Source: Candidatus Omnitrophota bacterium (GTDB taxonomy: Bacteria > Omnitrophota > Omnitrophia > Omnitrophales > Aquincolibacteriaceae). From it: a stretch of DNA of 64,000 nt. Where the stretch lies: assembly GCA_022709525.1 (NCBI GenBank), contig JAKLIQ010000001.1, forward strand, positions 274,679 through 338,678, read 5' to 3'. The number at the start of each line of letters is the position of its first letter. Within the stretch, counting starts at the first letter, position 1. This document shows positions 23,320-45,373 of the stretch, one piece after another. The notes beneath the pieces are model-generated. The model was not told the DNA's origin. It saw only the letters and a list, made by a program, of their open reading frames with translations, and did not search any database. Made by a program: the position numbers and the translations under genes.

Positions 23320-23451
23320 TGGTTTCCCTAGCGCTTCAAAATCTTTTGGCAAGACTGCGGTAAAGCAATTTTGACCCGCGGGTCGGAAGTTTTGCCTTTG
23401 GCCCGCTTTAAAATGTCTTTCTTTTTTTGCCTCGAACAGATAATATGCGCC

Positions 23452-27663: not shown

Positions 27664-27889
27664 TGCTGTGCGTTGTTGCATCGCAGATCCTGCACTGAAA
27701 AAGTCGGAAAAATTTATAGAAAGTTTAGTGCGGCGCTCCCTTCAATAAAATCTTTATGAGAACCAGTGCCGTTTGGTGTTCGGGAGACGGGAAGATAGTA
27801 GAATAAAGCGTTTTTTAAAATACCGTTTTTCAATACCCCGCAAGTCAGCTATAATCCCTTCCCAATCGAAATCGGCAAAGAGGTTTCCT

Positions 27890-30116
<2,227 letters not shown>

Positions 30117-30167: not shown

Positions 30168-30189
30168 AATTGTTCCTGATTTCACAATT
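30168..30189 (+). promoter_or_regulatory. Candidate Rex operator (AATTGTtcctgatttcACAATT)
   Basis: The right half-site TTCACAA matches the Rex box consensus (TTGTGAA-n-TTCACAA) exactly and the left half TTGTTCC partially. Perfect 6-bp outer inverted repeat AATTGT/ACAATT. It lies 13 nt upstream of the NuoE-like gene and downstream of a TTGACA at 30132. Confidence 0.4.
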
Positions 30190-30201: not shown

Positions 30202-30765
30202 ATGAGCGTTCCATCGCAAAAAACCCAGCAAACCCAAGCCTCCTCCAGCCAACCCTGCGGCTGTCAGCCCTCCGAAGAGGAAATGCTTCGCAGTCTCGAT
30301 GCCGTGATCGACGGTTTCAAGAAAACCGATGGCGCCTTGATCCCGATCCTTCAGACCGCGCAGAACCTTTTCGGTTATCTCCCCGCCACCGTCCTCAAAC
30401 ACATCAGCATGCGGCTCAATATCCCTTATAGCGAAGTCACGGGGGTTGTCAGTTTCTACTCTTTCTTTTCCACCGTGCCGCGCGGGAAGCATGTCATTCG
30501 CGTTTGTCTCGGGACCGCCTGCTACGTCCGCGGCGGCAAGGAAGTGCTCGAGGCGTTTAAAAAGAACCTCAAGATCAACGTAGGAGAGACCACGCCCGAC
30601 CGGATGTTCTCGCTTGAAGTCGGACGCTGTTTCGGGGCGTGCGGCCTGGCGCCTGTAGCCATGATCGATGAAGATGTCCATCAGCGGGTCAAATCCGCCA
30701 AGATCCGCGAGATCATCAGCCAGTACCAGCACGAAGGAGAAGACGTCAAGGAGGCCAAGTCATGA
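30202..30765 (+). CDS. NuoE/HydC/HndA-like [2Fe-2S] thioredoxin-fold subunit (first flavin-based module)
   Basis: Matches the NuoE 24-kDa subunit pattern: VSFYSFF, CLGTACYVRGG and the later C-loop RCFGACGLAPVAMID. Confidence 0.8.
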   Translation: MSVPSQKTQQTQASSSQPCGCQPSEEEMLRSLDAVIDGFKKTDGALIPILQTAQNLFGYLPATVLKHISMRLNIPYSEVTGVVSFYSFFSTVPRGKHVIRVCLGTACYVRGGKEVLEAFKKNLKINVGETTPDRMFSLEVGRCFGACGLAPVAMIDEDVHQRVKSAKIREIISQYQHEGEDVKEAKS

Positions 30766-33700
30766 CCGGGTCTCCGCAAAAACTTGCTTCCATACAGGAC
30801 CTCAACAAGTTCAAAAAATCCGCCCTGGATGAAAAAAAGAAAAGCGCTTCGAAAAAAAAGATCCTCCTTTGCGCCGGCGCCGGCTGCATCGCGTCCGGTT
30901 CACTTCAGCTTAAAAAAGCCCTCACCGAAAAGATCAAGGATGAAAAACTGGATATCGAAGTGATCGAAACGGGATGTCTCGGGCCCTGCGCGCAAGGGCC
31001 GGTCATCGTGGTGGAGCCGGACCGTGTTTTCTATGAAAACCTCAAGCCGGCGGATGCTTCCGATATTGTGAACGAGCACCTCCGTAAAGGGAAGCCCGTC
31101 GAGCGGCTCATGCCCCGCGATATCAAGAGCGGCCAATCCGTTCCCAAGCAGGATCAGATGGATTTTTTCCAGAAGCAGACCAAAATCGTGCTCCGCAATT
31201 GCGGCGGGATCGATCCTTTAAAGATCGGCGACTACATCGCCCAAGACGGTTACCAGTCGCTGGCCAAGGTCCTGACCTCCATGAAACCGGAGGAAGTGAT
31301 CGAACAGGTCAAAAAGTCCGGGCTTCGCGGCCGCGGCGGCGCGGGATTTCCGACCGGCATGAAATGGGAATTCACGCGTAAGGCGCCGGGCGATGTCAAA
31401 TATGTGATCTGTAACGCGGACGAAGGGGATCCCGGCGCTTTTATGGACCGGAGCGTCCTGGAAGGGGATCCGCACAGTGTGATCGAAGGCATGGCGATCG
31501 CGGCGTTCGCGGTCGGAGCTTCGCGCGGCTTTGTCTATGTGCGCGCTGAATACCCACTTGCGGTTTCGCGCCTCACCAAGGCCATCGAACACGCCAACGA
31601 AACCGGCCTGCTCGGGAAAAATATTTTGGGGACCGGTTTTCATTTCGATCTTGAGATCCGCATGGGTTCCGGCGCTTTCGTCTGCGGCGAAGAAACAGCT
31701 CTTATGAATTCTATCGAAGGGAAGCGCGGCGAGCCGCGGCCAAGGCCTCCCTTTCCGGCCCAGAGCGGGCTATGGAATAAACCCAGTCTCCTGAACAACG
31801 TCGAAACCTACGCGAACATACCGGTCATCCTTTTAAAAGGTTCGGAGTGGTATGCGTCTCTGGGGACGGAATCAAGCAAGGGAACCAAGGTATTTGCTCT
31901 TGCCGGCGCTATCCGGAACACCGGCCTTGTGGAAGTGCCGATCGGAACACCTCTTGGGGAGCTCATTTATGATATCGGCGGGGGGATCAAAGGCGGCAAA
32001 AAATATAAAGCTGCGCAGATCGGAGGGCCTTCCGGCGGCTGCATCCCGAAAGAATATCTGAACGTTCCGCTGGATTACAAGACCTTGGAAGACCTCGGCG
32101 CCATCATGGGCTCCGGCGGCCTGATCGTGATGGATGAAGACTCCTGCATGGTGGATGTGGCGCGATTCTTCCTTGATTTCGTGCAGGATGAATCCTGCGG
32201 CAAATGCGTGCCGTGCCGCGTGGGGACCAAACGCATGCTCGAGATCCTGGAACGCATTTGTTCGGGGCAGGGGGAGGAAGGCGACGTTGAGAGGTTGATC
32301 AAGCTGGGCGGAGAGATTAAAGAGACCTCGCTTTGCGGTTTGGGCCAAACGGCTCCCAATCCCGTTCTTTCCACCATCCGCCATTTCCGCAAGGAATACG
32401 ATCAACATATTCGCGAAAAACACTGTGAAGCGGGCGTTTGTCCGTCCCTCGTGCGAGCTCCGTGTCAAACCGCGTGCCCCGCAGGAGTGGATGTTCCCGG
32501 TTTTGTGTCGCTGGTGGGAGAAAAACGTTACGCGGAGGCGCTCAAACTTCATCGCGAACGGAATCCCTTTGCCGCGGTGTGCGCGCGCGTCTGTTTTCAC
32601 ACTTGCGAGGATAAATGCCGGCGGGCGACGCTTGATGATTCCGTTTCGATACGCGGCATTAAACGTTTCATGGTCGACCAGGAAGTTGTGATCCAGGTGC
32701 CGGAGGTCCGTCACAATGAACAAAATGCCGCGCGCAAGATCGCGATCATCGGGGGAGGTCCGGCAGGGCTTTCCTGCGCTTATTTTTTAGCACGGCTTGG
32801 CTACCGGCCGACCGTTTTTGAATCAGAGCCGAGGCCGGGCGGAATGCTTGTTCAAACGATCCCGGCGTACCGTCTGCCGCGCGAAACGCTCGCCCGGGAA
32901 ATAAGAATGATCGAACAATTAGGCGTGACCATGGAGACCAACAAGCGGTTGGGTCGGGATTTTACGCTGCAGGAGCTTCGCGATAAAAAATACGATGCGA
33001 TCTTTATCGGGATCGGTGCTCCGGAGTCTTTCGGGCTTGGGATCGCCGGCGAAGACGCCGAAGGCGTCGTGATGGCGCTTCCGTTCTTGAGGGAATACAA
33101 CATCCGCGGGTCTGTTCCCGTCGGAAAACAAGTGGTCGTCGTAGGCGGCGGCAACGCGGCGATCGACGCGGCCCGGACCGCGCTTCGCTTGGGAGCCAAG
33201 ACCGTCACAGTGCTTTACCGGCGCAGCCAGGAAGAAATGCCGGCCTACGCGGAGGAAGTGCGCGAGGCGATCTATGAAGGGATCAAGTTGATGCCGCTCA
33301 CTCATCCCGTGGAGATCCTGAAATCGAAAGAAGGCAAAGTTTGCGGTGTCCAGTGCATGACGATGAAACTCGGCGAATACGATCGCAGCGGCCGGCGGTG
33401 CCCGACCGCGGACGGGGCCGACCAATTTAAATTAGAGGCGGACCAGGTGATCGTCGCGATCGGTCAAACGCTTCAGCCGGGGAAACTTTTTGAGCTCAAA
33501 GACGCCGAGATCAAGATGACGCAGCATAAATTCATTTATGCGGATTCCGTGACCGGACAAACTTCTGTTTCCGGTATTTTTGCCGGCGGCGATGCGGCGT
33601 CCGGCCCCTGGTCGGTGGTGGCAGCGATCGGCGCGGGGGAGCGCGCGGCTGTGGGGATCGATCATTATCTGACCGGCGAAGATCATGCCTTTTGGCGGGA

Positions 33701-33911
33701 GGAAAAAGTCGTGGATACGGATTTTGATCCCGATGTGGATCCGGTCCCTTACCCGCGGGAAGCCGTCCGTTCGATCCCGGTCGAGAAAAGGAAACATAAT
33801 TTCGACGAAGTCGAGCTTCCCTGGAATGAAAATGTGGCACAGCGCCAGGCCAAACGCTGCCTTCGTTGCGATTACGGGAAAACAGTGACCCGGAGAGGAA
33901 GCAAGTCATGA
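30762..33911 (+). CDS. Triple-fusion flavoprotein: HndB-like [2Fe-2S] thioredoxin domain + NuoF/HydB-like FMN-NAD(P)H subunit + C-terminal GltD/NfnB-like NADPH oxidoreductase
   Basis: The N-terminus has the CAGAGC...GCLGPC pattern. The NuoF core has GLRGRGGAGFPTGMKWEF and SCGKCVPCRVG. From ~aa 600 on there are CEAGVCPSLV..CQTACPAGVD cluster motifs followed by IAIIGGGPAGLSCAYFLARLGYRPTVFE and VVVVGGGNAAIDAA dinucleotide folds, as in NfnB/GltD. The start overlaps the upstream stop (ATGA). Confidence 0.8.
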   Translation: MTGSPQKLASIQDLNKFKKSALDEKKKSASKKKILLCAGAGCIASGSLQLKKALTEKIKDEKLDIEVIETGCLGPCAQGPVIVVEPDRVFYENLKPADASDIVNEHLRKGKPVERLMPRDIKSGQSVPKQDQMDFFQKQTKIVLRNCGGIDPLKIGDYIAQDGYQSLAKVLTSMKPEEVIEQVKKSGLRGRGGAGFPTGMKWEFTRKAPGDVKYVICNADEGDPGAFMDRSVLEGDPHSVIEGMAIAAFAVGASRGFVYVRAEYPLAVSRLTKAIEHANETGLLGKNILGTGFHFDLEIRMGSGAFVCGEETALMNSIEGKRGEPRPRPPFPAQSGLWNKPSLLNNVETYANIPVILLKGSEWYASLGTESSKGTKVFALAGAIRNTGLVEVPIGTPLGELIYDIGGGIKGGKKYKAAQIGGPSGGCIPKEYLNVPLDYKTLEDLGAIMGSGGLIVMDEDSCMVDVARFFLDFVQDESCGKCVPCRVGTKRMLEILERICSGQGEEGDVERLIKLGGEIKETSLCGLGQTAPNPVLSTIRHFRKEYDQHIREKHCEAGVCPSLVRAPCQTACPAGVDVPGFVSLVGEKRYAEALKLHRERNPFAAVCARVCFHTCEDKCRRATLDDSVSIRGIKRFMVDQEVVIQVPEVRHNEQNAARKIAIIGGGPAGLSCAYFLARLGYRPTVFESEPRPGGMLVQTIPAYRLPRETLAREIRMIEQLGVTMETNKRLGRDFTLQELRDKKYDAIFIGIGAPESFGLGIAGEDAEGVVMALPFLREYNIRGSVPVGKQVVVVGGGNAAIDAARTALRLGAKTVTVLYRRSQEEMPAYAEEVREAIYEGIKLMPLTHPVEILKSKEGKVCGVQCMTMKLGEYDRSGRRCPTADGADQFKLEADQVIVAIGQTLQPGKLFELKDAEIKMTQHKFIYADSVTGQTSVSGIFAGGDAASGPWSVVAAIGAGERAAVGIDHYLTGEDHAFWREEKVVDTDFDPDVDPVPYPREAVRSIPVEKRKHNFDEVELPWNENVAQRQAKRCLRCDYGKTVTRRGSKS

Positions 33912-35680
33912 CGAAAGTTTTGATCAATCACCAGGAGGTGGAAGTTCCCGCAGGAGCGACCATCCTTGAGGCGGCCCGGAAGCTTGGGGTGGAGATCCCG
34001 ACCCTTTGTTACCTCGAAGGGAAGCTTCCGATCGGCGCTTGCCGCGTTTGCCTTGTCGAAGTAGAAGGGGCGAAGCGCCTTGTGGCTTCCTGTTCCACGC
34101 CCGTGACGGAGGGGATGCGGGTCCATACCAATAATAAGAAAGTGCGCGAAGCGCGGCGAACGGTCGTGGAGTTGATCCTAAGCGAACACGAAGGGGCTTG
34201 CCAGTACTGCACGCGCAGCGAAGATTGCGAACTTAAAAAAATAGCGTCCCATTTAGGCATTGAGGATGTTCACTACAAAGGCGAGAAACCCCCGGTCCAT
34301 ATCGACGCAAGCACGCCCGCGCTTGTGCGGGATTCGGGCAAGTGTATCAAGTGCCGCCGCTGCGTGACAGTTTGCCGCGAAGTCCAGGGCGTTGGCGCGC
34401 TTTTTCCGCAAAACCGCGGTTATAAAACCGTGATCGGACCGGCTTTCGCGATGGACCTGGATCATGTCGCTTGCGTCCAATGCGGGCAATGCGCCGCCAT
34501 CTGTCCGGTCGGGGCGATCCAGGAAAAGAACGATATTGATAAGGTCTGGGAAGTGATCGAGAACGGGACCAAGCATGTTGTGGTGCAGACGGCCCCGGCG
34601 ATCCGGGCCGCCCTCGGGGAATGCTTCGGCTACTCTCCCGGAACGCTTGTCACAGGAAAAATGGTGACGGCGTTACGCCGGCTTGGCTTTAACGCGGTTT
34701 TTGATACGAATTTTGCCGCCGATCTGACCATTATTGAAGAGGGAAACGAGCTTCTGACGCGCCTTAAAAAGGCCCTTGTCGACAAAGAGCCCGTATCGCT
34801 TCCGATGTTCACGAGCTGCTCTCCGGGCTGGATCAAATTCGCCGAGTATTATTACCCGGAATTCCTGCCGAACCTTTCCACGTGCAAGTCGCCGCAGCAG
34901 ATGTTCGGCGCTCTGGCCAAAACCTACTATGCCGCGCAAAAAGGGATCAAGCCCGAGGATATCGTTGTGGTTTCGGTCATGCCGTGCACCGCGAAAAAAT
35001 TCGAAGCTCAACGCCCGGAAATGAACGCGAGCGGTTTCCAGGACGTCGATTATGTCCTCACGACGCGCGAACTCGGCTTCATGATCGAATCAGCCGGGAT
35101 CGATTTCAAGAATTTGGAAGATGGCCAAATGGATTCGCCGCTTGGCCTTTCAACGGGCGCCGCGGATATCTTTGCCAACACGGGCGGCGTGATGGAAGCG
35201 GCCTTGCGGACCGTCTATGAGGTTGTAACCGGCCGGGAATTTCCTTCCGCGGACCTCCGCCTGGCTCCGGTCGAGGGTCTTAAAGGCATTAAAGCCGCTT
35301 CGCTTGTGATCCAGGGGACGCTCCCTGAGTGGAATTTTCTTGAGAATGTTGAAGTGAAAGTCGCCGTGGCGCACGGCCTCGCGAACGCGGCCGATCTGCT
35401 GGACCAGATCAAGGAAGGAAAAGCCAGTTTTCATTTTATCGAGATCATGACCTGTCCCGGGGGCTGTATCGGCGGGGGTGGCCAGCCGCGTTACACGGAC
35501 GATTCGGTCCGTTTGGCGCGCATTAACGCCATCTACCAGGAAGATGCCGGAAAAAAGCTCCGCAAATCCCATACAAATCCCCAGATCCAGAAACTCTACG
35601 AAGAATACCTCAAGAAGCCGCTCGGGGAGCGGTCCCACCACCTGCTTCATACGCATTATCACGAACGGACCAAGGTTTAA
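33908..35680 (+). CDS. [FeFe]-hydrogenase large-subunit homologue (HydA-like) with a non-canonical L1 motif TSCSPGW
   Basis: N-terminal 2Fe-2S and two 4Fe-4S ferredoxin motifs are present. H-cluster motifs L2 (VMPCTAKKFE) and L3 (EIMTCPGGCIGGGGQP) are canonical. L1 reads FTSCSPGW (canonical TSCCPxW); the Ser codon TCT is at 34820-34822. The ATG overlaps the upstream stop (ATGA). Confidence 0.8.
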   Translation: MTKVLINHQEVEVPAGATILEAARKLGVEIPTLCYLEGKLPIGACRVCLVEVEGAKRLVASCSTPVTEGMRVHTNNKKVREARRTVVELILSEHEGACQYCTRSEDCELKKIASHLGIEDVHYKGEKPPVHIDASTPALVRDSGKCIKCRRCVTVCREVQGVGALFPQNRGYKTVIGPAFAMDLDHVACVQCGQCAAICPVGAIQEKNDIDKVWEVIENGTKHVVVQTAPAIRAALGECFGYSPGTLVTGKMVTALRRLGFNAVFDTNFAADLTIIEEGNELLTRLKKALVDKEPVSLPMFTSCSPGWIKFAEYYYPEFLPNLSTCKSPQQMFGALAKTYYAAQKGIKPEDIVVVSVMPCTAKKFEAQRPEMNASGFQDVDYVLTTRELGFMIESAGIDFKNLEDGQMDSPLGLSTGAADIFANTGGVMEAALRTVYEVVTGREFPSADLRLAPVEGLKGIKAASLVIQGTLPEWNFLENVEVKVAVAHGLANAADLLDQIKEGKASFHFIEIMTCPGGCIGGGGQPRYTDDSVRLARINAIYQEDAGKKLRKSHTNPQIQKLYEEYLKKPLGERSHHLLHTHYHERTKV

Positions 35681-35754
35681 CGCCGATTTTTTTCTTGCCT
35701 CACTATGAAAATTTTGATAATATCTCAATCGTTCGATTTTTCACGAATTCTTCT

Positions 35755-36372
35755 ATGAAGAAACTTCCCCGAAAGATCATCACAAGGGTCTTGCTTTACA
35801 TACGGACCCTCGAAAGCTTGATCAAGGAAAAGCGTTTCCTGGTCTCCTCGAAGCAGCTTTCCGAGATCACGGGGCTTTCGGACGTGAAGATCCGGAAGGA
35901 TATCTCGAATTTTAAAAAGATCGGAAAGCCGCGGATCGGTTATAAAACGCTTGATCTGAAGAGGACGCTTGAGAATTATCTGATCCAGGGCAATACGGTG
36001 CGCGTCGTGCTTTTTGGCGCGGGGAACCTGGGTTCGGCGATCCTGCGATACCCCGGATTCCGGAAGGGCAACGTGAGATTGGTTGCGGCGTTCGACGCGT
36101 TGCGGCGCAAGACCGGGAAGAAAGTCGGGGGCGTTCACATTTATCCGGTCGAGCGTTCGCCGGAGATCATCCGGCGGTGCCGGGCGGATATCGGGATCAT
36201 TGCCGTCCCCAAAGAACACGCTCAAGAAGTGGCGGATTTTATGGTATTATCGGGGCTGCACCGGATCATTAATTTTGCTCCTTGCCCGATCAGCGTGCCG
36301 GCCAAGGTCCAGGTCCGGAACATTGATTTTACGATTGAGTTCCTGTCGCTTTTCTGCGATACCCAGAAATAG
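35755..36372 (+). CDS. rex: Redox-sensing transcriptional repressor Rex
   Basis: N-terminal wHTH (IITRVLLYIRTLESL...FLVSSKQLSEITGLSDVKIRKDIS) and C-terminal Rossmann fold (VVLFGAGNLGSAILRY) characteristic of Rex/AT-rich DNA-binding protein. Confidence 0.8.
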   Translation: MKKLPRKIITRVLLYIRTLESLIKEKRFLVSSKQLSEITGLSDVKIRKDISNFKKIGKPRIGYKTLDLKRTLENYLIQGNTVRVVLFGAGNLGSAILRYPGFRKGNVRLVAAFDALRRKTGKKVGGVHIYPVERSPEIIRRCRADIGIIAVPKEHAQEVADFMVLSGLHRIINFAPCPISVPAKVQVRNIDFTIEFLSLFCDTQK

Positions 36373-36384
36373 ACGGAGGGAAAT

Positions 36385-36735
36385 ATGCGATACGCGACCC
36401 AAGAGACGCTCAAAGAATTCAACCGCCTGATGGTAAGCATCCGCAAAGCGGTGCCGAAAGAATACGACGCGTTCATGAATGAAAAAAAGGTCATGACGCG
36501 ATCCGGGAAGCTTCCCGAGAAGATGAAATGGCTGTTGCTTTTGACTGCCAGCGTGGCGCAAAAATGCCCCGTTTGCATTCCGCGTGCGGTCCAGCATTGC
36601 CTGGAAGCCGGTTGGACGAAAGAGGAAATGCTCGAGGCCTGCATGGTCGCGGTGCTTGTAGGCGGTTCGAGCGCCATGACGTATGTGACTGTTGCAGCCA
36701 AGGCGATCGAAGAGCTTCATAAAAAGAAGAAATAG
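36385..36735 (+). CDS. Carboxymuconolactone decarboxylase/AhpD-like family protein with CxxC
   Basis: ~116 aa; a CPVCIPRAVQHC motif within a helical AhpD-like core. Confidence 0.6.
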   Translation: MRYATQETLKEFNRLMVSIRKAVPKEYDAFMNEKKVMTRSGKLPEKMKWLLLLTASVAQKCPVCIPRAVQHCLEAGWTKEEMLEACMVAVLVGGSSAMTYVTVAAKAIEELHKKKK

Positions 36736-36771: not shown

Positions 36772-37263
36772 ATGGATAAAGCGGTGATCGAACAGGAAGT
36801 GCGGGAGATCGCGGATTCCTGGAAGGGTAAGGAAGGGAACCTTATCATGGTGCTCCACCAGATCCAGAACCGCTACGGTTATGTTCCGCGCGAAGTTTCG
36901 CTTGTTCTTTCCGAGATCCTTGATGTACCGCTTGCCCGCATCTACGAAGTGATCACTTTCTATCATTTTTTCCGCCTGACCCCGCCTGGCAAACACACGA
37001 TCTCCGTTTGTATGGGAACGGCCTGTTATCTCAAAGGAGGCGCCGAGATCCTGGGCGAATTAGAGCATCTTCTTTGTGTTAAGCCGGGGGAGACGACCAA
37101 AGACGGTCAATTCCATCTCGAGGTCGTGCGCTGTCTTGGCTGTTGCGGGCTGGCCCCGGTGGTGAAGATCGGTGAAAAAGTCTACGGCGGCGTGAAAAAG
37201 AAAGACGTCGGCGACATTATTACCCAGTATTCTGAGGATTCGGAAGCCAAGACGGCGGCCTGA
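36772..37263 (+). CDS. hndA: NuoE/HndA-like [2Fe-2S] subunit of tetrameric [FeFe]-hydrogenase
   Basis: VITFYHFF, CMGTACYLKGG and RCLGCCGLAPVVKI motifs; 163 aa. Confidence 0.8.
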   Translation: MDKAVIEQEVREIADSWKGKEGNLIMVLHQIQNRYGYVPREVSLVLSEILDVPLARIYEVITFYHFFRLTPPGKHTISVCMGTACYLKGGAEILGELEHLLCVKPGETTKDGQFHLEVVRCLGCCGLAPVVKIGEKVYGGVKKKDVGDIITQYSEDSEAKTAA

Positions 37264-37274
37264 GGAGAAAGTAT

Positions 37275-37625
37275 ATGGCGAAAATAACCAGGAAAGACCT
37301 TGAAGCTTTGAAGCAAAAACATACCGGCGAGGATCGTAATTGGATCCGCGTAGGCTTCAGCACCTGCGGGATCGCCGCGGGGGCCCAGGAAGTCTATGAC
37401 ACTCTTGTTGAGGAAAGCCGCAAGCACAATGCGGATGTGGAGATCAAAAAGTGCGGTTGCGTCGGGATGTGTTCGGCAGAACCGCTTGTGGAAGTCCACG
37501 TTAAGAACATGCCGACGGTCTTCTACGGCAAGGTCGACAAAGAAGTGGCGACCAAGATCATGGAAAAACATGTTTGCGGGAAAATGCTCGTCAATGACCG
37601 CATCTACGACATGAGGCTTTCTTAA
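37275..37625 (+). CDS. hndB: Small thioredoxin-like [2Fe-2S] ferredoxin subunit (HndB-like)
   Basis: 116 aa with the CGIAAGAQ...C GCVGMCSAEPLVEV cysteine pattern; sits between the NuoE-like and NuoF-like genes as in hndABCD. Confidence 0.6.
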   Translation: MAKITRKDLEALKQKHTGEDRNWIRVGFSTCGIAAGAQEVYDTLVEESRKHNADVEIKKCGCVGMCSAEPLVEVHVKNMPTVFYGKVDKEVATKIMEKHVCGKMLVNDRIYDMRLS

Positions 37626-37640
37626 AGGAAATCAGGGAAT

Positions 37641-39380
37641 ATGGCCAAAACCGTTTTTGTCAAAGACACCGCGATCACCGGAAAAGACAGAACCCGCGAT
37701 TTTTACGGATTCTTTCTTGGCGGCCTCAGAGAAAAGGGCCTTGAGAACGACGTTCAACTTGTTCGCGTCGCAGATATTGGCGTCTACGGCCAGGGCATGG
37801 TCGTACGGGTATTGCCTGAAGATTTTCTCTATGTCAATGTCCAGGATAGCGACATTCCTGCCGTCATTACCGAAAGCGTGATCGGCGGCAAACCGATCAA
37901 AGATAAACTTTTTACCCAAGCCTCAAAGCAAGCGCGCATTGTGCTTCGCAACTGCGGCGTGATCGATCCGGAAAGCATCGAAGATTACATCGCCCGCGAC
38001 GGATATCAAGCTCTCGCCAAAGTCCTCGGCGAATACACGCCCGAGAAAACCGCTCAGGAGATCAAGGCCTCCGGCCTTCGCGGCCGCGGAGGCGCCGGTT
38101 TTCCCACCGGAATGAAATGGGAGATCACGCGGAAAGCGCCGGGCGATCAGAAATACATGATCTGTAACGGGGACGAAGGGGATCCGGGCGCTTATATGGA
38201 TCGCAGCGTCCTGGAGGGCGATCCGCATTCGGTGGTCGAAGGGATGATCATCGGCGGCTATGCCATCGGCGCTTCCAAAGGTTATTTTTATATCCGGGCG
38301 GAATACCCTCTCGCGATCGCGAGGATCGAAAAAGCTATTGAGCAATGCCGGAAGCACGGGATCCTGGGTGAAGGCATCTTGGGATCCTCGTTTAATTTTG
38401 ATCTTGAGATCCGTCTCGGTGCCGGCGCGTTCGTTTGCGGCGAAGAAACGGCGCTGATCGCGTCAATTGAAGGGAAGCGCGGTTACCCGAGTCCGCGCCC
38501 TCCGTTCCCGTCCATTAAAGGTCTCTGGGGCAAGCCTACTTGCATTAATAATGTCGAAACCTTGGCGAATATCCCGGTCATTATTTTAAAGGGAGGTTCA
38601 TGGTTCGCCGGCATCGGGACCGAAGGTTCCAAGGGGACCAAGGTGTTCGCCGTAACCGGAAAAGTAAAGAATTCGGGATTAGTAGAAGTCCCGATGGGAA
38701 CAACGATCGAAGATATCGTCTATGGGATCTGCGGGGGAGCATTGAGCGGAAAATCCGTCAAGGCGATCCAGACCGGCGGCCCTTCGGGCGGTGTGATCCC
38801 CAAAGAATATTTCCAGACCAAAGTGGATTATGAAAGCCTCCAAAAAATGGGATCCATTATGGGTTCCGGCGGCATGATCGTGATGGATGAGGACGATTGC
38901 ATGGCGGATATTGCGAAATTCTATCTCGGATTTTGCGTCGATGAATCCTGCGGAAAATGCGCGCCGTGCCGTATCGGTGGAACGCAAATGCTCCGGCTCC
39001 TTAAGAAAGTCACGGATGGGGAGGGAACCCGCAAAGATCTGGACCAGCTCGAACAGATCTCGTTCGCGATGCAAAAGGCCTCGCTTTGCGGGCTCGGCCA
39101 GACGGCGCCGAACCCCGTGCTTTCCACTTTGCATTATTACCGCAGCGAATATGAAGCGCATGTCGACAAGAAGAAATGCCCGGCCTGCAAATGCGAAAAA
39201 CTGATCCGGTTCCTGATCATGAGCGAAAAATGCGTCAAGTGCGGCATGTGTTTCAAGGCGTGTCCGGTAGGCGCCATTTCGGGGAACCGTGAAAGCGGTT
39301 ATCTGATCGACCAGACGAAATGCGTCCGCTGCGGGCAGTGTTTCGAGGTCTGCAAACCGCGCGCGATCAGCCGCAGCTAA
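37641..39380 (+). CDS. hndC: NuoF/HydB/HndC-like FMN- and NAD(P)H-binding subunit with C-terminal 2x[4Fe-4S] ferredoxin domain
   Basis: GLRGRGGAGFPTGMKWEI, SCGKCAPCRIG, and C-terminal CVKCGMCFKACP / CVRCGQCFEVC motifs. Confidence 0.85.
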   Translation: MAKTVFVKDTAITGKDRTRDFYGFFLGGLREKGLENDVQLVRVADIGVYGQGMVVRVLPEDFLYVNVQDSDIPAVITESVIGGKPIKDKLFTQASKQARIVLRNCGVIDPESIEDYIARDGYQALAKVLGEYTPEKTAQEIKASGLRGRGGAGFPTGMKWEITRKAPGDQKYMICNGDEGDPGAYMDRSVLEGDPHSVVEGMIIGGYAIGASKGYFYIRAEYPLAIARIEKAIEQCRKHGILGEGILGSSFNFDLEIRLGAGAFVCGEETALIASIEGKRGYPSPRPPFPSIKGLWGKPTCINNVETLANIPVIILKGGSWFAGIGTEGSKGTKVFAVTGKVKNSGLVEVPMGTTIEDIVYGICGGALSGKSVKAIQTGGPSGGVIPKEYFQTKVDYESLQKMGSIMGSGGMIVMDEDDCMADIAKFYLGFCVDESCGKCAPCRIGGTQMLRLLKKVTDGEGTRKDLDQLEQISFAMQKASLCGLGQTAPNPVLSTLHYYRSEYEAHVDKKKCPACKCEKLIRFLIMSEKCVKCGMCFKACPVGAISGNRESGYLIDQTKCVRCGQCFEVCKPRAISRS

Positions 39381-39409
39381 AGTTTATATAGAGAAAAAAG
39401 GAAAGATCC

Positions 39410-41161
39410 ATGGTTAAGGCTGTTATCAACGGATTAAAGGTTGAAGTGCCCGAAAAGACGACGATCCTCGATGCCGCGCGTAAGGCGCAGATCAAGATCC
39501 CGACCCTTTGCAAACATCCGGATTCTTACCTTCACGCCTCCGCCGCCTGCGGTATCTGCCTTGTGAGGGTCAAGGGTTCAAAGAAAATGCTTCGGGCTTG
39601 CTGCACGCCGCTTGAAGAAGGCATGGACATCATCACTCATGATCCCGAGATCGTGGCGATCCGGCGGACCGTTGTGGAGCTTTTTCTTTCCAATCATCCG
39701 AATGAATGTTTAACCTGCGGCCGGAACAATAATTGCGAACTGCAATCCCTTGTGGCGGATTTCGGGATCCGTGAAGAGTTTTATGAAAAGATCGTAAAAG
39801 ATATCCCCAAGGATGATTCGACAGGGAATATTGTGCTGGAGCCCCGGAAATGCATCAATTGTGCGCGCTGCGTCGATGTCTGCCAAAACGTTCAAGATGT
39901 ATGGGCGCTTACGTTCCTCCACCGCGGGTTCAATACAAGAATGGCTCCCGCCGGCGATATCAGTCTTGCAGACTCGCCTTGCGTTCGTTGCGGTCAGTGC
40001 GCCGCGCATTGTCCGACCGGAGCGATCTTCGAAAAAGACGATACCGTGCTCGCCTGGAAAGCGCTTCGCGATCCGGAACAGTATTGCGTGGTTCAGATCG
40101 CGCCGGCGGTCCGCGTCGCTCTTGGCGAGGCCTTCGGTTTTCCGCTCGGCGCTAATGTGACCAAAAAAATCTACACCGCCCTCCGCCGCATGGGCTTCAA
40201 GGCGATCTTCGATACCAATTTCAGCGCCGATGTGACCATCATGGAGGAGGCGAGCGAATTCGTCGAACGTTTTGCGCACAAAAAGGGCCCTCTTCCGCTT
40301 ATTACGACCTGCTGTCCCTCATGGGTGGATTTCATGGAGAAATTCCATCACGATATGATCCCGCATTTTTCATCCGCGAAATCACCTCACGAAATGATGG
40401 GTGTTCTGGTGAAGACCTATTACGCCGAAAAGAACAAGCTCGATCCGGCGAAATTAAAGGTGATTTCCGTCATGCCATGCACGGCCAAGAAATTTGAGAT
40501 CTCGCGCAGCCATGATATGTCGGCTTCCGGGTTCCAGGATGTCGACGTGGTGCTCACAACACGCGAGCTTGCCCGCATGATCAAACAAGCCGGTATCGAT
40601 TTTTCGAATCTTCCGGAAGAAGATAGCGATCATATCCTGGGAGATTACAGCGGCGCTGGAACGATCTTTGGAGCTACGGGCGGCGTGATGGAAGCGGCAT
40701 TGCGCACCGCTTATTCTTTTGTGACCGGCAAGAAACTTCCCAAAGTGGAGTTTGAAAATGTTCGCGGCTTGAAAGGCGTTAAGGAAACTTCGATCAAGAT
40801 CGAGGGCGCGGAAGTGAAGATCGCGGTCGCGCACGGTTTGGCGAACGTAGAATATGTGCTTGATCAAGTCCGCAAAGCCCAGAAAGAAGGCAAGCCGCTC
40901 CCGTATCATTTTATCGAGGTCATGGCTTGTCCCGGCGGTTGCGTGGGCGGCGGCGGCCAGCCTTATGGCGTGACAGACGAGCTTCGCACCGCTCGCGCGA
41001 AAGGGCTTTATTCGGACGACGAAGCGCAGACCGTTCGCTGCTCGCATGAAAATCCGTACGTGCAGCAGCTCTATAAGGAGTTTCTCGGTAAACCGTTGAG
41101 CGAAAAGGCGCATCACCTGCTTCATACGAAATATCAACCGTTACCGATCTATCGGCGGTAG
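39410..41161 (+). CDS. hndD: [FeFe]-hydrogenase catalytic subunit (canonical H-cluster motifs)
   Basis: N-terminal 2Fe-2S + 2x4Fe-4S domains; L1 TTCCPSW, L2 VMPCTAKKFE, L3 EVMACPGGCVGGGGQP. Confidence 0.85.
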   Translation: MVKAVINGLKVEVPEKTTILDAARKAQIKIPTLCKHPDSYLHASAACGICLVRVKGSKKMLRACCTPLEEGMDIITHDPEIVAIRRTVVELFLSNHPNECLTCGRNNNCELQSLVADFGIREEFYEKIVKDIPKDDSTGNIVLEPRKCINCARCVDVCQNVQDVWALTFLHRGFNTRMAPAGDISLADSPCVRCGQCAAHCPTGAIFEKDDTVLAWKALRDPEQYCVVQIAPAVRVALGEAFGFPLGANVTKKIYTALRRMGFKAIFDTNFSADVTIMEEASEFVERFAHKKGPLPLITTCCPSWVDFMEKFHHDMIPHFSSAKSPHEMMGVLVKTYYAEKNKLDPAKLKVISVMPCTAKKFEISRSHDMSASGFQDVDVVLTTRELARMIKQAGIDFSNLPEEDSDHILGDYSGAGTIFGATGGVMEAALRTAYSFVTGKKLPKVEFENVRGLKGVKETSIKIEGAEVKIAVAHGLANVEYVLDQVRKAQKEGKPLPYHFIEVMACPGGCVGGGGQPYGVTDELRTARAKGLYSDDEAQTVRCSHENPYVQQLYKEFLGKPLSEKAHHLLHTKYQPLPIYRR

Positions 41162-41561: not shown

Positions 41562-42824
41562 ATGGAAAAAACTCCAAAATCGATGAGACTTCAGATCGGT
41601 ATCTTCGGCAGGACCAATGTCGGAAAATCCAGCTTTCTCAACATGGTCGCGGGCCAGGACGTGGCGATCACTTCGCCGGTGCCGGGGACAACGACGGATG
41701 TGGTTGAAAAAGTGATGGAGCTTCTGCCGGTCGGCCCGGTGGTGTTCCTGGATACCGGCGGTCTTGACGATGATTCCACGCTCGGTTCCAGGCGCGTGGA
41801 GCGGACCCGAAAGATATTTGACCGCTCGGATGTTTCCATCCTCATTCTGGACGCGGATCGCTGGACGGAATTTGAAGAAGAAGTGGTTCGCGAAGCGCAG
41901 GCGAGGAAAAGCCCGCTCATTCTTGTCGTGAATAAAAGCGATCTTACGCCGCCCTCCGCGGTTTTTCTGGAGAAAATAAAACAAAAAACCTCCCGCATTC
42001 TGGTCTGTTCGAGCACGGACCGGGCGCGGCGCGACGAGTACGTGAATCTTCTGAAGCAATTTTTACTCGAGGTCTGCCCCGAAGATTTCCTAATGGCGCC
42101 CGCGATGCTTGGGGACCTCATGCCGAAAGGAGGACTTGCCATCCTGATCATCCCGATCGATTTTGAGGCGCCTAAGGGCCGCATCATCCTGCCCCAAGTC
42201 CAGGCGATCCGCGATGCCCTGGACCATGATTCGATGACGCTTGTGGTCAAGGAAAGCGAATATAAGGACGCGTTACAAAAATTAAAAACACCTCCCGACC
42301 TTGTGGTCTGCGATTCCCAAGTGGTCGACCGGATGGTCGCTGAGACGCCGCCCGGCGTGAGGTGCACGACTTTCTCCATTCTTTTGTCACGCATTAAAGG
42401 GGATATTGCCGAAATGACAAAGGGCGCGCTCGCGGTCGAGAGCCTCAAAGAAGGCGATAAGATCCTTATTTCCGAATCCTGCAGCCATCACGCGATCGAA
42501 GGGGATATCGGCCGGATCAAGATCCCGAAATGGATCCAGAAATACTTGGGCTGCGAGATCAAGATCGGCGTTTGCGCGGGGCGGGATTTCCCGGACGATC
42601 TGAAAGATTACAAACTGATCATTCAGTGCGGTTCCTGCATGCTGACGCGACGGGAAACGCTGGCGCGTATCCAGAAAGCAAAGCAGGCCGGGGTTCCGAT
42701 CACCAATTACGGGCTGTGCATTTCCTACCTCCAAGGAGTGCTCGAACGAGTGATAGAGCCTTTTCCAGATGCCCTTAAAGCGTTTCAAGAAAATAAAATC
42801 AATATCAAGGAAATCCTGCGATGA
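41562..42824 (+). CDS. hydF: [FeFe]-hydrogenase maturation GTPase HydF
   Basis: G1 motif GRTNVGKSS, G3 LDTGG, NKSD G4-like motif, and the C-terminal cluster-binding region with CSHH...C...C. Confidence 0.85.
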   Translation: MEKTPKSMRLQIGIFGRTNVGKSSFLNMVAGQDVAITSPVPGTTTDVVEKVMELLPVGPVVFLDTGGLDDDSTLGSRRVERTRKIFDRSDVSILILDADRWTEFEEEVVREAQARKSPLILVVNKSDLTPPSAVFLEKIKQKTSRILVCSSTDRARRDEYVNLLKQFLLEVCPEDFLMAPAMLGDLMPKGGLAILIIPIDFEAPKGRIILPQVQAIRDALDHDSMTLVVKESEYKDALQKLKTPPDLVVCDSQVVDRMVAETPPGVRCTTFSILLSRIKGDIAEMTKGALAVESLKEGDKILISESCSHHAIEGDIGRIKIPKWIQKYLGCEIKIGVCAGRDFPDDLKDYKLIIQCGSCMLTRRETLARIQKAKQAGVPITNYGLCISYLQGVLERVIEPFPDALKAFQENKINIKEILR

Positions 42825-44305
42825 CGCCCGAAACCGCTTGGATCGCCCAGCGCATCAAGCAGGATCAGATCAACCGTTATCTCGATCGAGGCCGCGATTT
42901 TATCGACGATAACGCGATTTGGGATGAGATCAAAAAAGCGGCGGAACCTGATGCGGCGACGGTTCGCACCATTCTCGCTAAATCGCTTGCCGTCCAAACG
43001 CTTGCCCCTGAAGAATTGGCTCAATTGATGCTTGTCAGGGATCCCGGACTGCTCGAGGAGATGAAAGCGGCGGCATTTGCGGTTAAAAAGAAGGTTTATG
43101 ATAACCGGATCGTGACGTTTGCGCCGCTTTATATGGGCAACTTTTGCGTCAATAACTGCGCCTATTGCGGGTTCAAACGGGAAAATACGGAAGCGAAACG
43201 GCGCGTTCTCAGCATGGAGGAGATTCGCAGAGAGACCGAGAGCCTCGCGGGGAAGATCGGCCACAAGCGCATTATCGCTGTTTACGGCGAACATCCGCTT
43301 ACGGGGATCGATTACATCCTTGAAAGCATGCGGACGATCTATGATGTTAAAGTCCTAACGAAGCACGGTTACGGGAATATCCGCCGCATCAACGTGAACG
43401 CCGCCCCGATGTCGATCGAGGAATTAACGCGTCTGAAGGACGGCGGGCTGGGAACTTATCAGGTGTTCCAGGAAACTTACCATCACGAAACCTACGCAAA
43501 ACTCCATCCCAAGGGAACGCTTAAATCGGATTATCACTGGCGGCTTTATGCGATGCACCGGGCGCTCGAGGCGGGCATCGATGACGTAGGGATCGGCGTC
43601 CTTTTCGGGCTTTATGATTGGCGCTTTGAGATTATGGCGCTTCTTTATCACGCGATCGAACTGGAAGCCAAGCTCGGGATCGGCCCGCATACGGTCTCAT
43701 TCCCGCGCATGGAGCCCGCGCTTAATTCCGATTATGCAGAACATTCGCCTTACAAAGTTTCGGATGAGGATTTTAAAAAGATCATCCTTCTTATCCGTCT
43801 AGCCATTCCTTATACCGGTATGATCATTACCGCGCGTGAAACCGCGCAGATGCGCCGCGATGCGATCGGCCTCGGGATCACGCAAACGGACGCTTCCACC
43901 AAGATCGGGATCGGCAGCTACAGCGAAGAAGGAAGCGAACAGGAGTCAAAGCGACAGCAATTCATGCTGGGCGATACGAGGAGCTTGGATGAATTGGTAA
44001 AGGATTTCGCGGACATGGGGCATATCACTTCTTTCTGCACGGCCGGTTATCGTTGCGGCCGCACTGGCAAATGCATCATGGATCTTTTACGAAGCGGCAA
44101 AGAAGGCAAATTCTGCAAATTGAACGCTGTTCTGACATTCCAGGAATGGCTCGATGATTTCGCGACGCCCGCAACGCGCGAAGCGGGCCTCCGCGTGCTT
44201 GAAAAAGAACTTGAAGAGATCCGCGCGACAAACCCTCAGGGTTTTCCCGTCTTTTTTCAATTCTTGGAACGCGTCCGGAAAGGGGAGCGGGACCTTTTCC
44301 TGTAA
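42821..44305 (+). CDS. hydG: [FeFe]-hydrogenase maturase HydG (radical-SAM tyrosine lyase)
   Basis: CVNNCAYCGF radical-SAM motif, a ThiH-like core and a C-terminal Cys-containing extension (CTAGYRCGRTGKC). Overlaps hydF by 4 nt. Confidence 0.85.
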   Translation: MTPETAWIAQRIKQDQINRYLDRGRDFIDDNAIWDEIKKAAEPDAATVRTILAKSLAVQTLAPEELAQLMLVRDPGLLEEMKAAAFAVKKKVYDNRIVTFAPLYMGNFCVNNCAYCGFKRENTEAKRRVLSMEEIRRETESLAGKIGHKRIIAVYGEHPLTGIDYILESMRTIYDVKVLTKHGYGNIRRINVNAAPMSIEELTRLKDGGLGTYQVFQETYHHETYAKLHPKGTLKSDYHWRLYAMHRALEAGIDDVGIGVLFGLYDWRFEIMALLYHAIELEAKLGIGPHTVSFPRMEPALNSDYAEHSPYKVSDEDFKKIILLIRLAIPYTGMIITARETAQMRRDAIGLGITQTDASTKIGIGSYSEEGSEQESKRQQFMLGDTRSLDELVKDFADMGHITSFCTAGYRCGRTGKCIMDLLRSGKEGKFCKLNAVLTFQEWLDDFATPATREAGLRVLEKELEEIRATNPQGFPVFFQFLERVRKGERDLFL

Positions 44306-44314
44306 CGATCGGCC

Positions 44315-45373
44315 ATGGCAGAACTCACGCGCAAAGAAATGCTCGGTTGGCTCAGCGAGAAAGATCCCCAGAAGCTCGAAGAGCTTTTCCGCGAAGCGCG
44401 AGCCTGCGCGATCCGCCATGTCGGCCCCAAGGTTTATTTCCGCGGGCTTATCGAGTTCAGCAACTTTTGCTCGAAAGACTGTTATTACTGCGGTATCCGG
44501 AAAAGCAACCGGAATCTGGAACGTTTTTCTCTAACCGAAGCCGAGATCTTGGAATGCGCGAAAGCGGCTTACGAAATGGATTATGGCTCGATCGTTCTTC
44601 AGTCCGGCGAGCGGCAGGACGGCGTCTACGCCGGTTTTATCGAGGATATTCTCCGTAAGATCAAAAAAATGACTTCCGGGAAACTTGGGATCACGCTTTC
44701 TCTCGGAGAGCAAGCCCCGGAAACCTATGAGCGATGGTTTGAGGCCGGAGCACACCGTTATCTTTTGAGGATCGAAACCAGCAGCCCCGCGCTTTATCAA
44801 CGTCTCCATCCGGCGGATCACTCCTTTGAAACGCGCAAGAGATGCCTCGAGGCGCTTTGCCGGATCGGCTATCAGGTCGGCACCGGCGTGATGATCGGAC
44901 TTCCTTTTCAGACCCATGAGGACCTGGTAGGGGACATCTTCTTTTTCAAAGACCAGGATATCGATATGATCGGGATGGGGCCTTATATCGCGCACGCGGA
45001 TACGCCCCTCAAGGCCCAAATATCGGATTATGATCCTTCAGAGAATTTCCGGCTGGGGCTTGTCATGGTGGCGCTTACGAGGCTTTTCCTTAAAGATGTC
45101 AATATTGCGGCCGCGACAGCGCTTCAGACGCTTGATGTCCAAGGAAGAGAAAAAGGGGTATTGGCGGGCGCAAACGTCATCATGCCCAATATCACGCCGA
45201 CGGACTACCGGAAGCTTTATCGGCTTTATGATAACAAACCCTGCTTGGACGAAAATGCCCGCCAATGCAAAAACTGCCTCGAGCAGCGGATCCGCGCGGC
45301 CGGCGCGAAGATCGGTTACGGCGAATGGGGGGATGCCCCTCATTTCATGAGGAGGAAAAGCGCTGCCGTTTAG
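44315..45373 (+). CDS. hydE: [FeFe]-hydrogenase maturase HydE (radical-SAM, BioB-like)
   Basis: CSKDCYYCGIR radical-SAM motif; 352 aa with a biotin-synthase-like fold. Confidence 0.85.
   Translation: MAELTRKEMLGWLSEKDPQKLEELFREARACAIRHVGPKVYFRGLIEFSNFCSKDCYYCGIRKSNRNLERFSLTEAEILECAKAAYEMDYGSIVLQSGERQDGVYAGFIEDILRKIKKMTSGKLGITLSLGEQAPETYERWFEAGAHRYLLRIETSSPALYQRLHPADHSFETRKRCLEALCRIGYQVGTGVMIGLPFQTHEDLVGDIFFFKDQDIDMIGMGPYIAHADTPLKAQISDYDPSENFRLGLVMVALTRLFLKDVNIAAATALQTLDVQGREKGVLAGANVIMPNITPTDYRKLYRLYDNKPCLDENARQCKNCLEQRIRAAGAKIGYGEWGDAPHFMRRKSAAV

Follow-up and report, generated by a model that had tools for sequence, protein, structure and literature searches.

Within the window, by which we mean the whole 64,000-nucleotide stretch of a Candidatus Omnitrophota metagenome-assembled genome analysed here, two [FeFe]-hydrogenase operons and a set of H-cluster maturase genes lie on the forward strand (Table 1). 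The first operon, hydC-hydB-hydA, stands directly downstream of a canonical NfnAB-type transhydrogenase pair, and its hydA start codon overlaps the end of hydB (ATGA). A relaxed search for TTGT-N10-ACAA, which we take to represent the Rex consensus, returned a single site in the window, just upstream of hydC, and the same Rex-like box precedes hydC in the Omnitrophota loci L001, L002, L006, L008, L011 and L012. A stricter search of the window for TGTGA-N6-TCACA with at most one mismatch gave one match, at chance level and far from the operon. The second operon is canonical: its HydB2 keeps the B3/B4 ferredoxin-type domain, and its HydA2 has two adjacent cysteines in the L1 motif, as the preliminary description of this DNA had stated. 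Matches to the maturase models TIGR03955 and TIGR03956 were above their cut-offs.

Table 1. Features of the hydrogenase region, in window coordinates.
Feature	Position	Strand	Basis or remark
nfnA-like gene	27773-28717	+	Pfam
nfnB	28719-30116	+	Pfam; 4ylf_B, 594 bits
Rex-operator-like inverted repeat TTGTTCCTGATTTCACAA	30170-30187	+	putative site, 15 nt upstream of hydC
hydC, NuoE-like [2Fe-2S] subunit, 187 aa	30202-30765	+	Pfam 2Fe-2S_thioredx, 5e-50
hydB-gltD fusion, 1049 aa	30762-33911	+	Pfam; alignment with HydB2; PDB matches
hydA (Ser type), M3-type [FeFe]-hydrogenase catalytic subunit, 590 aa	33908-35680	+	Pfam; NF040763; PDB 7q4v_A; AF2 model
L1/P1 motif TSCSPGW	34811-34831	+	aligned to CpI C299/C300 and A. 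woodii C300/S301
L2 motif MPCTAKKFE (Cys360, Lys363)	34979-35005	+	canonical; invariant in alignment A1
L3 motif EIMTCPGGCIGGGG (Cys516, Cys520)	35441-35482	+	canonical; invariant in alignment A1
rex, redox-sensing repressor	35695-36372	+	Pfam; NCBIfam NF003995, 191.7 bits; start codon uncertain
Second, canonical hydrogenase operon	36772-41161	+	hydC2, small ORF, hydB2, hydA2
hydC2	36772-37263	+	second operon
Small thioredoxin-like ORF	37275-37625	+	second operon
hydB2	37641-39380	+	second operon; ferredoxin-type C-terminus
hydA2	39410-41161	+	second operon; L1 TTCCPSW
hydF	41562-42824	+	H-cluster maturase; Pfam
hydG	42821-44305	+	H-cluster maturase; Pfam
hydE	44315-45373	+	H-cluster maturase; Pfam

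The hydA reading frame (ATG at 33908, stop codon ending at 35680) encodes, from the N-terminus, a [2Fe-2S] domain, a His-ligated [4Fe-4S] site, a 2x[4Fe-4S] domain, the H-domain and a small-subunit-like C-terminus. It matches Pfam Fe_hyd_lg_C (PF02906, 5e-98) and PF02256 (6.5e-25), and scores 524 bits against TIGR02512 (cut-off 406) and 894.6 bits against NCBIfam NF040763 (cut-off 765); by its H-domain and C-terminus the predicted protein would be the catalytic subunit of a group A [FeFe]-hydrogenase. Its best PDB match is 7q4v_A (E 2e-188), and an AF2 model with a pLDDT of 83 superimposes on the Thermoanaerobacter kivui and Acetobacterium woodii HydA structures with TM scores of 0.91 and 0.90. 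Given the scores against Fe_hyd_lg_C and NF040763, the L1 motif discussed below is not a chance occurrence.

That motif is encoded as ACG AGC TGC TCT CCG GGC TGG, the serine codon TCT occupying 34820-34822, exactly as first described. In HMMER alignments, the one with the CpI motif TSCCPGW ending at P301, HydA Cys304 falls on the proton-relay residue CpI C299 and Ser305 on CpI C300, which ligates the [4Fe-4S] moiety of the H-cluster; Ser305 was aligned in the same way with the T. kivui and A. woodii proteins. The preliminary description was therefore right to place the substitution at a cluster-ligand position, and right that L2 and L3 are canonical, since these read MPCTAKKFE (MPCxxKxxE) and EIMTCPGGCIGGG (ExMxCxxGCxxG). 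HydA departs from the strict L1 pattern TSCCPxW, in which both cysteines are required, by keeping the first and replacing the second, and it conforms to the looser published form xTSCxPxWx. The chain C304, E278, S324, E281 and R285, numbered by mapping through the CpI alignment onto CpI C299, E279, S319, E282 and R286, presumably transfers protons as its counterparts do in the established literature. Alignment A1 shows no variation at any Fe-S ligand, in L2 or L3, or at the residues corresponding to CpI E279, E282, R286, S319, C299 and K358.

Ser305 is shared with most relatives of this HydA. Among the 120 closest protein clusters at 90% identity, serine occupies the ligand position in 118 (TSCSPGW 108, SSCSPGW 10, TSCCPGW 2), and among 80 orthologous genome loci in 78 (TSCSPGW 77, SSCSPGW 1, TSCCPGW 2), which answers the question, left by the preliminary description, of whether the serine is kept in orthologues. 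The loci span more than ten phyla, and include Omnitrophota, Spirochaetota, Desulfatiglans, Kiritimatiellia, Lentisphaerota, Fibrobacterota, Bacteroidota, Ignavibacteriota, Planctomycetota and Hydrogenedentota, among others. Since the serine is spelled with five different codons (TCG 31, TCT 17, TCC 14, TCA 11, AGC 2), it has been retained through synonymous change. The idea that a true TGT codon was misread as TCT, for which a single base change would be enough, is thereby as good as dismissed: an identical protein was recovered on three contigs (P0001, from a Candidatus Omnitrophota genome, with 12 member sequences on record), and the purified and structurally solved A. woodii HydA1 likewise carries serine.

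Nor is the residue as unusual as had been supposed, because, according to Kertess et al. (2017), about 20% of the sequences of putative hydrogenases carry serine here, and we find it in 26 of about 128 representatives at 50% identity. A rough neighbour-joining/Fitch reconstruction over 126 H-domains gave at least 14 switches between cysteine and serine; the tree is crude, so we read the number as no more than a sign that the switch may have recurred. In a search for compensatory positions separating Ser-type from Cys-type H-domains, weak associations alone came up: one at 515, the T/A residue that precedes the first cysteine of L3, and one at 307, the G/A residue within PxW. Neither is required, as A. 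woodii has Ala at 515. The full-text literature search for 'TSCSPGW' had Di Rienzi et al. (2013), on Melainabacteria, as its sole match. The serine is, in sum, a common, conserved natural variant already described in an active, solved enzyme, which makes its presence here ordinary; the protein was already held in public databases, and the finding in itself carries little weight.

The less ordinary part is, judging from domain content, the HydB partner. Its N-terminal part comprises a thioredoxin-like [2Fe-2S] domain, a NuoF-like FMN/NAD(H) domain and an N3-type [4Fe-4S] site, with residues 31-565 matching 7q4v_B. At the C-terminus, where a canonical electron-bifurcating HydABC has the B3/B4 clusters and the proposed ferredoxin site, a GltD-like module (Fer4_20 and Pyr_redox_2; DPD_II 2x[4Fe-4S] plus FAD/NAD(P)H) takes the place of the 2x[4Fe-4S] ferredoxin domain. 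The nearest PDB matches of this module are 9bov_A, 9n5u_A and 8oh5_C, and it scores 383, 364 and 332 bits against the NfnABC/Stn NADPH-input modules as opposed to 300 bits against the bifurcating NfnB. The order NuoE-like gene, NuoF-GltD fusion, hydA was found at every locus of the 80-locus set with enough upstream DNA. Because the ferredoxin domain is swapped for a module with 2x[4Fe-4S], FAD and an NADPH site, the complex most likely links H2 to NAD(H) at FMN and to NADP(H) at FAD, rather than to ferredoxin. An assignment to HydDB group A2 (GltD-linked) was considered and set aside, as the HydDB rule would point to A3 for a neighbour with a NuoF domain; HydDB itself reads the protein downstream of hydA, where rex lies here, while the NuoF-GltD gene lies upstream.

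Taken together, the sequence, its conservation, the domain architecture and the A. woodii precedent are best explained, with a probability of roughly 85%, by a HydA that is a catalytically competent group A subunit (A3/'A6', M3-type) in which Ser305 serves as a natural ligand, within an NAD(H)/NADP(H)-linked complex whose activity and substrates we infer from these data. HydA would act as one of three subunits, in keeping with the translational coupling of hydC, hydB and hydA. The maturase genes hydF, hydG and hydE elsewhere in the window, and the close superposition of the AF2 model on the two HydA structures, also speak for this reading. Four residues would ligate the H-cluster's [4Fe-4S] part, namely Ser305 in place of a cysteine, Cys360, Cys516 and Cys520, of which the last, which we take as the CpI C503 equivalent, would by homology bridge to the [2Fe] subcluster. 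The serine would then be a trait conserved in the lineage and accommodated by the scaffold. As the proton relay (Cys304, Glu278, Ser324, Glu281, Arg285) and Lys363 are unchanged, the production or splitting of H2 would proceed as it does in canonical enzymes, and the oxygen ligand would at most tune the potential of the cluster or the enzyme's catalytic bias.

The suggestion in the preliminary description that serine might abolish H2 catalysis does not hold for A. woodii HydA1, where Ser301, within an identical TSCSPGW motif, replaces the cysteine ligand of the A1 cluster ([4Fe-4S]H) in an enzyme that is active and shows normal H-cluster FTIR signatures (Katsyv et al. 2023); since the cryo-EM maps are limited in resolution, the oxygen ligation there rests on the authors' model. 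That active enzyme also fails the strict TSCCPxW pattern, which is thus invalid as an exclusion criterion, and we caution against using strict matching to call a HydA inactive or sensory. In the engineered Chlamydomonas HydA1 variant C115S (numbering of that study), by comparison, [4Fe-4S] occupancy was poor and activity absent (Kertess et al. 2017), which implies that tolerance for serine depends on the scaffold. For the HydA described here such tolerance is extrapolated from a relative of 52% identity, and why natural scaffolds should accept a serine that CrHydA1 does not is a question that these comparisons raise.

Of the rival readings, the one that survives best, albeit improbable, is that HydA has no functional H-cluster and acts as an Fe-S wire, in which case the complex would be no hydrogenase but an NADH/NADPH transhydrogenase of the Stn/NfnABC kind. 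The complex does contain an Stn/NfnABC-type NADPH module on a Bfu core, H2 metabolism could be left to the second, canonical HydABC of the window, and the CrHydA1 C115S result would fit a site that has lost its cluster. Against this, neither the remaining H-cluster ligands nor Lys363 nor any residue of the proton-transfer chain varies between phyla, a constancy that would be unexpected in a relic site, and the active A. woodii enzyme carries the identical motif. Loci L078 and L079, from the same GltD-linked clade, read TSCCPGW in an otherwise identical context, suggesting that Cys and Ser are interchangeable there. An Stn-like reaction would moreover need a ferredoxin site, and none is obvious here. 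The known H-cluster-less partners, StnC and NfnA, lack an H-domain entirely. StnC, put forward in the preliminary description as a HydA-like counterpart, was rejected as such, as the solved protein (8oh5_C) proved to be a 1172-residue GltD plus NuoG/FDH-like protein; HydA has its H-domain complete and lacks a GltD insert, and the best-scoring of two matched stretches covers HydA residues 4-100 for 8oh5_C and 3-99 for 9bov_A.

Somewhat less probable still is a ligand swap, in which Cys326 (at the CpI Ala321 position, within 'LSTCKSPQ') or Cys304 binds the fourth iron instead of Ser305. A regex survey found cysteine at 326 enriched among Ser-type sequences (136/144, compared with 53/98 of the Cys-type), and a neighbouring cysteine has been suggested as a substitute in the C115A variant (Kertess et al. 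2017). Seven Ser-type sequences nevertheless have Ala at 326, and half of the Cys-type ones have Cys, so the coupling is not strict, and we rejected Cys326 as a candidate ligand on these grounds. Using Cys304 would cost the proton relay, and in A. woodii the authors of the structure assign the role of the missing cysteine ligand to Ser301.

That HydA is a HydS-type enzyme, sensory or regulatory in role and weakened in its catalysis, as raised in the preliminary description, is very unlikely. L1 deviations are typical of putative sensory hydrogenase groups, and rex adjoins hydA. HydS-type enzymes (groups C/D), though, carry PAS or signalling domains and have lost the proton-relay Cys and its pathway, whereas the HydA studied here retains Cys304 and the Glu/Ser/Arg pathway and has no PAS, kinase or extra C-terminal domain in Pfam searches. 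It also passes the group A 'A6' model and fails the group B model (the sole non-A model in the output), and across the 80 loci it is translationally coupled to its HydB and HydC partners (to hydC where the upstream DNA reaches).

It is conceivable, though we hold this only tentatively, that the hydC/hydB-gltD/hydA(Ser) system has exchanged the ferredoxin branch for NADP(H), so that NADH and NADPH together would yield H2, or H2 would reduce both NAD+ and NADP+, with the serine possibly helping to tune the H-cluster to this potential window. We know of no hydrogenase for which joint confurcation of NADH and NADPH to H2, or its reverse, has been demonstrated biochemically, and the reaction of so widespread a HydB-GltD fusion complex would be of interest to the electron-bifurcation field.

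Among known systems, CpI from Clostridium pasteurianum (the prototype of group A1) has the same M3 fold (TM 0.89, 39% identity) and shares every catalytic residue except the C300 equivalent, its L1 being TSCCPGW; it is monomeric and ferredoxin-dependent, unlike the HydA of the predicted three-subunit complex. CrHydA1 C115S has the same Cys-to-Ser change beside the proton-relay Cys, but it is an engineered variant in which cluster and activity are lost, in contrast to the natural Ser-types, which are conserved and, in A. woodii, active. A. woodii HydA1, from HydABC(D) (PDB 7Q4V/7Q4W/8A5E; Katsyv et al. 2023), has the same M3 domain order at 52% identity, an identical L1 (TSCSPGWIKF) in which Ser305 aligns with Ser301Aw by HMMER and BLASTP, and the same L2 and L3 except for MAC where the protein studied here has MTC. 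Both pair with NuoE-like and NuoF-like subunits, but the 599-residue A. woodii HydB still ends in the 2x[4Fe-4S] domain of ferredoxin type and lacks a GltD module.

The Stn/NfnABC (Nfn-Bfu) complexes (PDB 8OH5, 9BOV, 9N5U) share the HydBC-like bifurcating core and have the most similar GltD module. In these, the NuoG/FDH-like subunit, whose body has no catalytic cofactor, carries GltD as an insert behind its N-terminal [2Fe-2S] domain, and StnB keeps its ferredoxin-type C-terminal domain, whereas in the window GltD sits in HydB and replaces that domain; they have no H-domain, and the third subunit here is a complete hydrogenase. The same architecture was set out on bioinformatic grounds by Zheng & Huang (2024, mSystems, PMC11406978) as sub-type I BfuABC, for group A3 [FeFe]-hydrogenases from Hydrogenedentota, in which BfuB has DPD_II and an FAD/NAD(P)-binding domain instead of B3/B4, and BfuA is of M3a type with serine common at the fifth P1 position. 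Matched against that published description rather than by sequence alignment, the window complex, with its BfuB-type HydB, M3a-type HydA and serine in P1, would belong to this sub-type. The sources differ, Hydrogenedentota there and a Candidatus Omnitrophota genome here, and two Hydrogenedentota loci (L062 and L076) are found among the HydA orthologues.

Translation of the + strand gives ACG AGC TGC TCT CCG GGC TGG, or T-S-C-S-P-G-W, for the L1 motif of HydA, and the preliminary description was correct in every detail of its observation, including the canonical L2 (MPCTAKKFE) and L3 (EIMTCPGGCIGGGG) motifs and the TTCCPSW found as L1 of the paralogue. The likeliest hydA start is an ATG that overlaps the stop codon of the preceding gene as ATGA, and the 590-aa product has the full M3-type [FeFe]-hydrogenase layout in Pfam (Fer2_4, NADH-G_4Fe-4S_3, a 2x[4Fe-4S] region, Fe_hyd_lg_C at 5e-98 and Fe_hyd_SSU), scoring 894.6 bits against NCBIfam NF040763, 'NADH-dependent [FeFe] hydrogenase, group A6' (cut-off 765). 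HMMER alignments to solved structures pair Cys304 and Ser305 with C299 and C300 of CpI, which are the proton-relay cysteine and the [4Fe-4S]H ligand, respectively; the serine therefore does occupy the cluster-ligand position, as had been proposed. The rarity attributed to it did not hold, since the Ser-for-Cys substitution is common, conserved and previously reported.

The best solved-structure match of HydA is A. woodii HydA1 (7Q4V/7Q4W/8A5E; E 2e-188, 52% identity), which reads LPMITSCSPGWIKF at the motif and in which Ser301 stands in for one of the cysteines that ligate the A1 cluster (Katsyv et al. 2023, PMC10021017). Both HydABC enzymes of that study have a typical H-cluster and work as active, bidirectional hydrogenases. 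The substitution is compatible with full activity in this closest characterised relative. When the same position was mutated in Chlamydomonas HydA1 (C115 in that paper's numbering, next to C114), the C115S protein retained little of its [4Fe-4S] cluster and was inactive (Kertess et al. 2017, PMC5855289). Zheng & Huang give the L1 motif as xTSCxPxWx and report Ser as common in four of five BfuA sub-types of Hydrogenedentota (2024, PMC11406978), and TSCSPGW was noted in Melainabacteria (Di Rienzi et al. 2013).

Across 47 aligned sequences, the Cys-type paralogue among them, the N-terminal cluster ligands (C34/C45/C48/C62, H94/C98/C101/C107, C146/C149/C152/C156 and C189/C192/C195/C199), the remaining three H-cluster cysteines (C360, C516 and C520), K363 and the proton-transfer residues E278, E281, R285, S324 and C304 were all invariant. 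An AF2 model (mean pLDDT 83) superimposes with TM scores of 0.91 on T. kivui HydA, 0.90 on A. woodii HydA and 0.89 on CpI, and hydF, hydG and hydE, which encode the maturases, are found 6 kb downstream of hydA. On these grounds, and since HydA matches neither HydS nor StnC, we read Ser305 as an oxygen ligand that occurs naturally in a functional H-cluster; we infer both its ligation and the activity of HydA from the 52%-identical A. woodii precedent.

A swap of the ligand to Cys326, which lies in LSTCKSPQ at the position of CpI Ala321, is an alternative to ligation by Ser305. Ser-type HydAs usually carry this cysteine, and it is enriched in them, but as a statistical tendency only: Ala takes its place in seven Ser-type sequences, and half of the Cys-type ones share the Cys. 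It is therefore not required, making a swap unlikely. A scan for positions co-varying with Ser/Cys returned weak associations only, at 515 and 307, with Thr515 often replacing the Ala before the first L3 Cys in Ser-type sequences (MTC vs MAC), again a tendency only. The suggestion of a sensory HydS-type enzyme failed, as Pfam found no PAS or kinase domain in HydA and the proton relay is kept. An StnC-like identity fared no better: StnC consists of GltD and NuoG domains (Stn structure paper), and of the two stretches of chain 8oh5_C that match HydA, the best-scoring one covers query residues 4-100 only.

A TGT-to-TCT sequencing error, raised previously, is ruled out by the orthologues, in which Ser is conserved at 78 of 80 genome loci (TSCSPGW 77, SSCSPGW 1, TSCCPGW 2) and is written with five codons (TCG 31, TCT 17, TCC 14, TCA 11, AGC 2), so that it has been maintained through synonymous turnover. 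These loci come from Omnitrophota, Spirochaetota, Desulfatiglans, Kiritimatiellia, Lentisphaerota/Victivallis, Fibrobacterota, Bacteroidales/Prolixibacteraceae, Kapaibacteria/Ignavibacteria, Planctomycetota, Hydrogenedentota and others. A protein 100% identical to HydA occurs in public collections on three contigs, named as Candidatus Omnitrophota MAG, and of the 120 nearest representatives of 90%-identity clusters, spanning 70-100% identity to HydA, 118 have Ser (TSCSPGW 108, SSCSPGW 10, TSCCPGW 2). Among 150 representatives drawn more broadly from 50%-identity clusters, ~128 had a recognisable L1 and 26 of these carried Ser, in agreement with the ~20% of putative hydrogenases given by Kertess et al. 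2017 (PMC5855289). A crude NJ/Fitch analysis of 126 H-domains suggested that Cys and Ser switched at least 14 times, consistent with a position that is readily interchangeable in such scaffolds.

Features of the window and their coordinates
Feature	Coordinates	Strand	Remark
Giant ORF	77-7624		2515 aa
Synthetase gene 1	9005-10369		aminoacyl-tRNA synthetase, class I Glu/Gln-type
Synthetase gene 2	11059-12744		aminoacyl-tRNA synthetase, class I Glu/Gln-type
Calpain-domain ORF	18865-23319		1484 aa; calpain-type cysteine protease domain
Large serine recombinase	23371-25158		
nfnAB	27773-30116		canonical pair
Rex-operator-like box	30170-30187		candidate site; 15 nt upstream of hydC
hydC	30202-30765	+	NuoE-like
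hydB	30762-33911	+	1049 aa
hydA	33908-35680		
L1 motif	34811-34831	+	TSCSPGW
Cys326 codon	34883-34885		
Thr515 codon	35450-35452		
rex	35695-36372	+	directly downstream of hydA
CMD-family ORF	36385-36735		small carboxymuconolactone decarboxylase, AhpD-like, CxxC
116-aa ORF	37275-37625		weak 2Fe-2S_thioredx match
hydB2	37641-39380		
HydA paralogue	39410-41161		TTCCPSW

Three genes, hydC, hydB and hydA in that order, are translationally coupled. Upstream of hydC stands the inverted repeat TTGTTCCTGATTTCACAA (TTGTTC...TTCACAA), the sole TTGT-N10-ACAA of the 64-kb window, which resembles a Rex operator and is a candidate Rex site; six Omnitrophota loci have a near-identical box at the corresponding position (L001:4108, L002:4263, L006:4237, L008:4257, L011:4274 and L012:4262), and one stands at L017:1868 too. 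Directly upstream of the operon is nfnAB, with a PyrK-like NfnA and an NfnB whose score against T. maritima NfnB is 594 bits, and the organism therefore owns a stand-alone bifurcating GltD-type protein as well as a HydB-fused one; among loci with enough upstream sequence, a similar GltD-like gene was also detected upstream in Omnitrophota, at 9 of 16 loci. The CMD-family ORF separates rex from a second, canonical hydC-x-hydB-hydA operon, which is followed by hydFGE. The 116-aa ORF just upstream of hydB2 has the look of a B5-type domain that was split off or replaced. Elsewhere in the window, the giant ORF had no Pfam match at E<=1e-5, the anticodon-binding domains of the two closely spaced synthetases suggest one GluRS-like and one GlnRS-like enzyme, and the calpain-domain ORF and the recombinase that follows it may mark a mobile-element boundary.

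Beyond the L1 coordinates, the feature still of interest is the HydB-GltD hydrogenase complex, which is widespread but has never been purified. HydB is NuoF-like; its residues 31-565 match A. woodii HydB and, beyond a conserved H-x5-C-x4-C linker, the protein runs into a DPD_II 2x[4Fe-4S] + FAD/NAD(P)H module, whereas the paralogous HydB2 has a 2x[4Fe-4S] ferredoxin-type domain there. Among solved chains the fused module comes closest to the modules that bring NADPH into Bfu-type transhydrogenases (NfnABC 9bov_A, 383 bits; 9n5u_A, 364; StnC 8oh5_C, 332), against 300 bits for bifurcating NfnB 4ylf_B. Of the 80 loci, all those whose upstream sequence is long enough have the fusion ahead of hydA; they span more than 10 phyla and include both TSCCPGW members. 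A NuoE-like gene precedes the fusion wherever the locus extends far enough. Such complexes have been described bioinformatically only, as 'sub-type I BfuABC', with speculation about a second, FAD-based bifurcation centre in BfuB (Zheng & Huang 2024, PMC11406978). Since the GltD-type module replaces the proposed ferredoxin site and resembles the module through which NADPH enters Stn without bifurcation, we hypothesise from sequence that H2 is probably coupled by the complex to NAD(H) at FMN and to NADP(H) at FAD; when H2 pressure is low, one possibility would be that NADH and NADPH are confurcated to H2. A. woodii combines a Ser-type HydA with an ordinary HydB, and the Ser trait is therefore not bound to the HydB-GltD fusion.
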